From Escherichia coli (GTDB lineage: Bacteria > Pseudomonadota > Gammaproteobacteria > Enterobacterales > Enterobacteriaceae), in assembly GCF_030013595.1 (NCBI RefSeq), contig NZ_CP122768.1: 64,000 bases of DNA. One strand, given 5' to 3'. This document shows positions 44,105 through 44,912 of the stretch, piece by piece; positions within the stretch are counted from its first letter, which is position 1, and each line of letters begins with the position of its first letter. A model generated the notes under the pieces. That model was not told the DNA's origin and ran no database searches. It was given only the letters and a program-made list of their open reading frames with translations. The position numbers were made by a program, and so were the translations under genes.

Positions 44105-44314
44105 ATGGGCAAATTAGGTGAAAACGTTCCGCTTCTTATCGATAAAGCCGTAGATTTCATGGCATCGAGCCAGGCGTTCCGGGAGTATCTGAAAAAACTA
44201 CCTCCCCGTAACGCGATTCCGTCCGGAATACCTGATGAAAGCGTGCCGTTATATCTACAACGTCTGGAGTATTATCGTCGGCTTTATCGGCCGAAGCAGG
44301 TAGAGGGGCAGTAA
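44105..44314 (+). CDS. yibT: Small protein YibT (69 aa)
   Basis: [69 protein letters not shown]; position between mtlR and yibL. Confidence 0.65.
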
Positions 44315-44912
44315 GCAGACGTTGCTTACTTTTGGAAGGCTTTTTTAAGCTGATTTTGGAAATCAGCTCTGTCAGTGAAAGGACCATTGTTGATCGCACA
44401 GCCTGTTGGTAACGCTGAATTTGCATTGCATACAAACTGGAGTCTGCAGGTTCAAACTGTGGCGGCGGTGGTAACGCCGCCACGCAATGCAGTTCACCAA
44501 AGGGTCCAAGGATTTCGTCGTCGGTAAACGCGTACTCGTTGCCGTCGTGATTTAGCTCTTCACGCAATGCCATCAGTAGCTCCGCATCTTCGTATTCCTG
44601 GCGGTTAATGACGCCCAACCCGTAAATGAGTTTTAAACGCACAGAAAGATCGCCCAGCGGACCGTCGCCGTCGAGTAACGGTTCTACAGCATACTTCACC
44701 GCGTAATCGTCTTTGCGGAATACCTGAAGCACCAGAAGATTTACTGCCTCGGTCAAAAGCTCGACGGCGGTGATCAGAAAGCTTCGCACGGTTTTGCCAG
44801 CATTCAGACGCTCAAGCACACGGTTTTCAAAGGCCTGGGTTTGTTCCATTGTTGCCTGCATATCTGACAATCTGTTATTCGGGCGCAGGGTATCCTGCGC
44901 CTGGTCCACCAT
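44157..44912 (-). CDS. mtlR: Mannitol operon repressor MtlR; C-terminus altered by apparent -1 frameshift (canonical-length gene would end near 44326)
   Basis: ORF reads 251 aa, [24 protein letters not shown]...[10 protein letters not shown] then PSKSKQRLL...; shifting +1 after the A-run gives AFQK-stop and 195 aa. Confidence 0.85.

Follow-up and report, generated by a model that had tools for sequence, protein, structure and literature searches.

An apparent frameshift near the 3' end of Escherichia coli mtlR is probably a homopolymer undercall

The mtlR gene in the stretch of Escherichia coli DNA analysed here (64,000 nucleotides, hereafter the window) leaves its native frame at a T homopolymer close to its 3' end, and the missing base is most likely a homopolymer undercall in this assembly, as judged from comparisons of sequences. 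Seven consecutive T's (A's on the mtlR strand) would have been called as six during sequencing or assembly. The gene is most likely an ordinary mtlR, and the organism itself probably has no such frameshift. The real strain would then make the ordinary 195-aa MtlR, with its stop codon 11 bp from yibT, and the 251-aa ORF would never be made; translation of the out-of-frame tail in living cells of the strain is accordingly improbable. The probable cause is a context-dependent undercall of the kind typical of long-read data or of other platforms with poor resolution of homopolymers.

The mtlR locus as assembled

The genes mtlA (46158-48068), mtlD (44915-46060), and mtlR (44340-44912) all lie on the minus strand, with mtlR last in the operon. 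The orthologous locus in RefSeq has the order mtlA-mtlD-mtlR, and the native mtlR there ends 11 bp from the convergent yibT. The features of the mtlR region are as follows.

44157..44912, minus strand: 251-aa ORF made up of MtlR residues 1-191 and a 60-residue out-of-frame tail (ORF listing and translation)
44340..44912, minus strand: native-frame portion of mtlR, residues 1-191 (tblastn, 100%; PF05068; PDB 6KCR)
44341..44346, minus strand: T6 homopolymer (A6 in mtlR), site of the apparent -1 frameshift (alignments with 118UI, TOE51, and L015)
44157..44339, minus strand: out-of-frame tail, 60 codons and a stop, crossing the mtlR/yibT spacer and the 3' part of yibT in antisense
44326..44328, minus strand: TAA, the stop codon of native mtlR, not in frame as assembled (read from the sequence)
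44745, minus strand: synonymous substitution, GCA for GCG (Ala), a marker of the window's lineage (differs from 118UI, common to L015)
44105..44314, plus strand: yibT, 69 aa, convergent, intact, and untouched by the tract (100% identical to the reference protein over 69 aa)
44310..44330, no strand assigned: 8-bp hairpin AGTAAGCA / TGCTTACT between the convergent genes (fold prediction)

The 251-aa minus-strand ORF described in the original prediction is present in the translation, and the six-base tract in which it had suspected a missing base does lack one. The tract at 44341-44346 holds six T's in the window and seven in the nearest E. coli genomes, as seen in the alignment with strain 118UI. 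This strain is the best-matching complete E. coli genome and differs from the window over 851 bp at only two places, namely the missing T and the synonymous substitution at 44745. The tract occupies codons 189-191 of 195, and the frame shifts after MtlR residue 191, so that the native C-terminus (...SLKKAFQK, 195 aa) is missing as assembled and the protein runs on from ...SLKK into the 60-aa tail. An extra A had been proposed to bring back a 195-aa MtlR, and restoring one T on the forward strand indeed gives ...SLKKAFQK and the stop codon at 44326-44328, with all 195 of 195 residues identical to the E. coli MtlR in PDB 6KCR. The product also agrees in length with the RefSeq E. coli MtlR (WP_000228269.1, 195 aa), the mtlR CDS of which is 588 nt. 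The 56 extra residues counted originally are correct as the net gain, but the out-of-frame stretch itself is 60 residues long, four native residues (AFQK) being replaced.

The protein is intact up to the shift. Residues 1-191 of the window MtlR are 100% identical to the reference MtlR in tblastn, and the PF05068 match (E = 4.8e-66) extends over residues 29-187 against profile positions 2-164 of 165, so that the whole Pfam MtlR domain lies upstream of the shift. A Pfam search with the 251-aa product matched nothing in the 60-residue tail, which is rich in Pro, Ser, Thr, and Asp. The antisense overlap of 158 bp between the long ORF and yibT, also noted originally, holds and corresponds to 44157-44314. 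By our own estimate, 60 stop-free codons would occur in random sequence with a chance of ~6%, and with a higher chance opposite a coding gene; the long stop-free tail is therefore an unremarkable, passive outcome of the shift.

The two arms of the hairpin at 44310-44330 each contain a stop codon, one that of yibT and the other that of native mtlR. The 76-nt stretch has a predicted folding energy of -13.5 kcal/mol (z = -2.1), and the hairpin is followed by TTTT on the yibT strand and by no U-run on the mtlR strand. A consensus scan of 43800-45000 detected no promoter and no canonical terminator. The idea that an intrinsic terminator ends the frameshifted mRNA as a non-stop transcript is unsupported, the hairpin having no U-run on the mtlR strand.

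Comparison with near-identical relatives

The window's exact hypervariable 1,587-aa YadA-like adhesin (37410-42173) served as a lineage tag. It occurs on 24 contigs (27 index blocks), one representative of which, L015 (a 234-kb contig, GCA_053637855.1), was compared with the window. Over window positions 27410-52172, the two show 0 mismatches and a single gap in 24,764 bp, and this sole gap is T7 in L015 against T6 in the window in the mtlR tract, the MtlR of L015 being 195 aa. Since L015 is otherwise identical and carries T7, T6 appears private to this assembly within the clone. The exact RfaP and HtrL proteins were too common to serve as lineage tags (6,965 and 2,710 index blocks, respectively); the HtrL tag nonetheless yielded another near-identical relative, L023. 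Over 10964-31835 (20,873 bp), this NCTC assembly differs from the window by two substitutions and by a single gap, which corresponds to T8 in L023 against T7 in the window at 16367.

In total, the window differs from its near-identical relatives over ~41 kb (10964-52172) by two substitutions and two single-T deletions, both in runs of at least seven. The errors that typically persist in long-read assemblies are deletions in long A/T homopolymers (PMC12007338, the Kastor paper), and two deletions beside two substitutions in ~41 kb match this pattern of residual sequencing error (cf. PMC12007338), unlike natural divergence.

The collinear reference TOE51 gave the same two sites. Of 56 complete genes of this reference, 53 are present in the window at full length and in a single frame. 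The other three are mtlR, the GT25 glycosyltransferase gene of the waa cluster, and a GH127 gene, the last five codons of which fall on the far side of a small island's junction. The reference has 25 homopolymers of at least seven bases with a counterpart in the window; 22 of them are unchanged there, one contains a substitution, and those at 44341 and 16367 have lost one base each. When runs of at least six bases are counted, 69 of 71 retain their length in the window, and both changes are contractions.

The window is thus clean in all other respects (69/71 homopolymers, 53/56 genes), an observation that speaks against an undercall. The absence of a close match among complete genomes is not explained by a Shigella origin or an IS insertion, both of which were considered and rejected: the additional 1.2 kb that separates rfaD from kbl is htrL.

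A second contracted tract in the waa cluster

The second contraction lies 28 kb from the one in mtlR.

16367..16373, plus strand: T7 tract (T8 in relatives) at the 3' end of the GT25 glycosyltransferase gene of the waa cluster (comparison with TOE51 and L023)

The change from T8 to T7 at 16367 turns a GT25 product of 257 aa (...VAFFSLLK) into one of 255 aa (...VAFFLF). T8 is present in L023 and in four other loci with the same waa type, and the contracted allele was found as an exact 91-mer in 9 of the 670 genomes with this waa type. Five of these nine are 'ETEC'-named pig isolates with accessions in the same range. The nine also overlap the set of genomes with T6 in mtlR: Nord122 and ETEC1749 carry both contractions. 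Nord122 is a near-clone of TOE51 and unrelated to the window, and in a comparison of the two over 49 kb outside the adhesin repeats the sole indels are two contractions, of the mtlR tract from A7 to A6 and of the GT25 tract from A8 to A7. The same two contractions in two unrelated lineages, the clone-mates of which retain the full tracts, would be rare for independent biological events and would be expected of a context-dependent systematic error.

Of all the long T-runs in the window, only the two contracted ones are preceded by GGC, which suggests a common 'GGC-T(n)' context of contracted runs, seen here at two sites only. The contracted and normal GT25 alleles also differ in the assemblies that carry them: the longest contig is below 10 kb in 40% of the index blocks for the contracted allele vs 16% for the normal one, and above 1 Mb in 13% vs 3%.

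Distribution of the six-T allele in public genomes

The locus is present in 5,411 of the 5,426 complete RefSeq genomes of E. coli, none of which matches the window perfectly. A megablast search with a 48-base query, designed so that T7 genomes cannot seed, matched 17 complete genomes, and 13 of these, out of 5,426, matched without a gap and hence carry T6; six T's were directly confirmed in 8 of the 13. The frequency of T6 is therefore ~0.24% in complete genomes, and it is ~0.29% in index blocks, T7 being found in more than 99.7% of E. coli genomes. The exact 251-aa protein occurs in a large protein collection on 214 contigs (270 index blocks) and under at least four NCBI accessions, and frameshifted variants exist on other backgrounds, including an E. 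marmotae-like one (P0014). In every T6 genome inspected, PGAP annotates mtlR as a pseudogene ('incomplete; missing C-terminus') and calls no 251-aa ORF. Searches of the literature turned up no account of this mtlR frameshift.

The carriers are unevenly distributed. Eight of the 13 complete T6 genomes are 'ETEC17xx' pig isolates with adjacent accessions, and two more, from Germany, also have adjacent accessions. The six ETEC17xx genomes that were fetched all come from pig faeces in Belgium. Judging from the names, the adjacent accessions, and the host and country common to those fetched, the ETEC17xx genomes apparently belong to one project. They are diverse all the same, five of them representing at least four haplotypes with 1 to 133 mismatches per 4.4 kb, and the T6 carriers overall fall on at least six haplotype backgrounds. 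The original prediction had named A6 in multiple independent genomes as evidence that would overturn it. Genomes of this kind are on record (13 of the 5,426 complete ones; 270 index blocks), but their existence is misleading as a test, because the carriers cluster by apparent sequencing project, represent a range of unrelated haplotypes, and are found disproportionately in assemblies that are noisy or fragmented.

Assembly quality of the carriers

Ten loci encoding the exact 251-aa protein were compared homopolymer by homopolymer. Contracted homopolymers number 4-11 out of 16-21 in five of them and 2-3 in two, and in the other three the mtlR tract alone is contracted. Every homopolymer change in the carrier loci is a contraction, and three T7 relatives show none. 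The longest contig is shorter than 10 kb in 89% of the 270 blocks with the 251-aa protein vs 34% of the 92,332 blocks with the 195-aa protein, a difference in the same direction as that between the GT25 alleles below 10 kb. In the clone of TOE51, both T6 and T7 have been reported, and several of the T6 assemblies are demonstrably noisy, with indels repeated at identical positions in the noisy assemblies. As no substitution separates the T6 from the T7 genomes of this clone, it contains no inherited T6 clade. EcN_Sk, by name the clonal Nissle strain, is 1.7% different from other ST73 genomes, which score alike against it.

General assembly noise as the sole cause of all public T6 calls was considered and is only partly true. 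In L003, L012, L008, ETEC1701, and EcN_Sk, the mtlR tract alone is contracted in the stretch examined, and the effect is therefore site-specific rather than general noise. Such site-specificity is also expected of a true mutational hot spot, and in this respect it counts against an undercall. The original prediction had left the choice between a slippage variant and a sequencing error undecided; the evidence favours the error, since a clone-mate has A7 and T6 follows apparent project and assembly quality rather than ancestry.

Mutation, hot spot, or recoding

It is unlikely that T6 arose by recent slippage on A7 in the sequenced isolate itself, after its split from the clone-mates. A7 runs are prone to slippage in vivo, and a homopolymer of seven bases belongs to a known class of indel hot spots. 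The present assembly is otherwise clean, some carriers are clean apart from the mtlR tract (L003 and L012), and the sparing of the whole Pfam domain means that the change need not be strongly deleterious. However, a private slippage requires two independent homopolymer deletions in ~41 kb that otherwise hold 0-2 substitutions. In mutation-accumulation studies of E. coli, substitutions greatly outnumber indels in the wild type, and many transitions are expected in a mismatch-repair mutator. A mutator background is itself unlikely, the two indels being accompanied by no excess of substitutions and by no transitions. A private slippage would also leave unexplained why the same two tracts are contracted in the unrelated Nord122 and in ETEC1749, and why T6 clusters by apparent project. 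Slippage may be the reason why E. coli genes contain fewer AAAAAAA and UUUUUUU heptamers than expected (PMC4066793).

There is only a small chance that A7 is a real, recurrent slippage site, with A6 present in ~0.25% of isolates on many backgrounds, a weaker repressor, and some native MtlR made through an A_AAA_AAG sequence. If this were so, the A6 allele would be a leaky hypomorph and not a null, because a small share of the ribosomes would slip back at A_AAA_AAG.

A natural recurrent hot spot or contingency-like switch, with T6 maintained or selected across lineages and the GT25 T8 tract behaving likewise, is most improbable. It would account for T6 on at least six haplotype backgrounds and on the E. 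marmotae-like one (P0014), for its stable frequency in complete genomes (~0.24%) and index blocks (~0.29%), and for the assemblies in which this is the sole contracted tract. It does not account for the enrichment of carriers in one apparent project over unrelated haplotypes and in fragmented or noisy assemblies, and no inherited T6 clade exists within the TOE51 clone. Classical phase-variable loci usually have tracts of 8-10 bases or more, near the 5' end or in the promoter. The mtlR tract is short (seven bases) and lies at codons 189-191, within the last five codons, so that it has neither the long tract nor the ON/OFF placement of such loci, and PGAP annotates every copy inspected as a pseudogene.

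Recoding was weighed at the following site.

44340..44346, minus strand: A_AAA_AAG heptamer in the X_XXY_YYZ phase, in the T6 reading only (frameshift simulation)

The zero frame of the T6 sequence reads TTA AAA AAG here, and the product of a simulated -1 slip is exactly the native 195-aa MtlR. A recoded gene, in which T6 is real, native MtlR arises by programmed -1 frameshifting, and the 251-aa product is a second isoform, would profit from a heptamer in the correct phase with a native -1 product and from the 8-bp hairpin 9 nt downstream of it; it is nevertheless barely credible. It depends wholly on T6 being real, and the relatives, including the clone-mate, have T7 and need no shift, so the motif is not conserved. 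The phase of A_AAA_AAG is therefore a chance outcome of the deletion rather than the mark of a conserved site of recoding. Stimulators of dnaX-type sites are an SD-like sequence upstream and/or a stable structure 5-8 nt downstream. Our reading of the sequence revealed no SD-like stimulator upstream, and the hairpin is short and stands further from the heptamer than in dnaX, where the structure is spaced ~6 nt from the frameshift site. Transcriptional slippage as a rescue needs runs of ~9 or more and was set aside for a run of only 6-7. A_AA.A_AA.G is among the three most efficient shift heptamers in E. coli (PMC4066793), but A_AAA_AAG has a low efficiency, ~0.3% unstimulated and at most ~3.7% with a favourable 3' context (PMC4066793). 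Native repressor from -1 slipping would be a trace at best.

Implications

Under the undercall reading, what matters is annotation. The mtlR tract and the GT25 T8 tract of the waa cluster would be recurrent sites of false frameshifts in E. coli assemblies, and spurious database entries for an 'mtlR pseudogene' or a '251-aa MtlR' would arise from the former. In screens for regulator loss or pseudogenisation, T6 should be regarded as suspect unless short reads confirm it.

If T6 were real, the consequences would fall on the C-terminus of the repressor. MtlR is an all-helical dimer, in which helices 3 and 4 mediate dimerisation and helices 5 and 6 the binding of HPr (PMC6763467), and its C-terminal helix binds CRP (PMC13421365). 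The last four residues would be changed, and a 60-aa tail would be attached to this CRP-binding helix. The tail could interfere with CRP bridging, and partial derepression of the mtl operon could follow; with the change located at the face that binds CRP, a weaker repressor and a partly derepressed operon would be the probable outcome. The allele would then be a modest regulatory variant with an altered CRP-binding end and no new kind of system.

Comparison with known systems

The site resembles the -1 frameshift site of dnaX in its identical heptamer, which in the T6 reading is in the correct phase, and in the presence of a hairpin downstream. It differs in that no SD-like element is seen upstream, the 8-bp hairpin at 9 nt is weak, and the motif is not conserved.

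The product shares with the E. coli MtlR of PDB 6KCR residues 1-191, the full Pfam domain, and the operon context. It differs in the replacement of AFQK and the 60 appended residues, and no difference is left once the T is restored. The mtlR pseudogenes annotated in RefSeq (Nord122, ETEC1701, ETEC1722, ETEC1746, ETEC1749, ETEC1703, FLI21, and EcN_Sk) show the T6 tract with the same consequence as in the window, but they are other haplotypes, with 59-149 mismatches to the window per 4.4 kb.

The likeness to the homopolymer errors of long-read assemblies (PMC12007338) lies in the deletion of a single base from an A/T run, the bias toward deletion, the truncation or extension of genes, the recurrence of the same sites in independent assemblies, and their absence from accurate assemblies of the same clone. 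The window differs from these assemblies in the low density of contractions, two per roughly 60 kb, and therefore appears to come from a well-polished assembly rather than a raw one.

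Homopolymer contraction in the GT25 gene and recurrent indels in public assemblies

A gene of the waa cluster carries a shortened homopolymer near its 3' end:

15615-16382, plus strand, GT25 glycosyltransferase gene

The run at 16367-16373 is T7 in the window and T8 in relatives, near-identical ones included, and the T7 state alters the C-terminus of the protein from 257 aa ending ...VAFFSLLK to 255 aa ending ...VAFFLF. This state is rare (9/670 genomes), and is found together with the T6 run of mtlR in Nord122, a near-clone of the collinear reference genome TOE51, and in the pig isolate ETEC1749. 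A second error of the assembly probably accounts for the GT25 T7 run.

Three public assemblies made independently from the TOE51 clone, L005 (GCA_949812085.1), L006 (GCA_030014575.1) and L009 (GCA_030014475.1), have single-base indels in common that fall at the same sites, with examples at 2545, 14000-14001 and 19553 in TOE51-oriented coordinates. In all three, selB is broken into products of 579 and 35 aa, and lldR is truncated (to 107, 230 and 230 aa, respectively). The indels repeated across these assemblies are site-specific systematic errors, which create false pseudogenes.

Strain EcN_Sk (locus L034, NZ_CP172017.1), whose genome is listed as 'complete' in RefSeq under the name of a Nissle 1917 derivative, shows an identity of only 98.3% over 20 kb with CFT073, ATCC 25922 and other ST73 genomes, all of which gave an identical score against it. 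EcN_Sk has several unique protein accessions, and the DUF3251 gene adjoining its mtlR is frameshifted; either the strain is heavily mutated or its assembly is error-laden.

Surroundings of mtlR

The stop codons of the convergent genes yibT and mtlR lie within a single 8-bp hairpin (44310-44330), one arm of which holds the yibT stop and the other the native mtlR stop. The hairpin is followed by TTTT on the yibT strand only and may represent a shared or one-sided terminator; it fails a consensus terminator scan. On the other side of mtlR, the mechanical ORF list gives mtlD as a 443-aa ORF (44912-46243, minus strand), because an in-frame upstream ATG lengthens the conserved gene:

44915-46060, minus strand, conserved mtlD, 382 aa

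As annotated in the reference, mtlD overlaps the beginning of mtlR by a single base, an arrangement that suggests translational coupling of the two genes.

Variable loci

37410-42173, minus strand, YadA-like trimeric autotransporter adhesin, 1,587 aa

The adhesin contains internal direct repeats of ~207 bp (40202-40430 and 40409-40637, 92.6% identical), and its length differs widely among the strains of the fetched loci, from 1,334 to ~1,750 aa. Since the exact 1,587-aa sequence is rare (27 index blocks of the public protein collection), it could be used as a clone tag.

Gene content relative to TOE51

A 2.3-kb island (57196-59483) occupies the place that in TOE51 holds yiaW-yiaV-yiaU-yiaT and a small hypothetical gene. 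Where the island meets the adjoining GH127 gene, the final 5 residues encoded by that gene are different. The island carries:

57779-58315, minus strand, HSDR_N-domain ORF
57236-57760, same frame as the HSDR_N-domain ORF, 174-aa ORF
58990-59400, plus strand, HicB-like antitoxin ORF

The first two are separated by an in-frame TAA and then five codons, and may be a single gene split by a nonsense codon.

20963-21835, between rfaD and kbl, htrL (yibB, PF09612)

An IS element was ruled out as the source of the extra 1.2 kb between rfaD and kbl, as the presence of htrL accounts for the additional length. The gene is absent from TOE51 and Nord122 and is therefore a presence/absence polymorphism.
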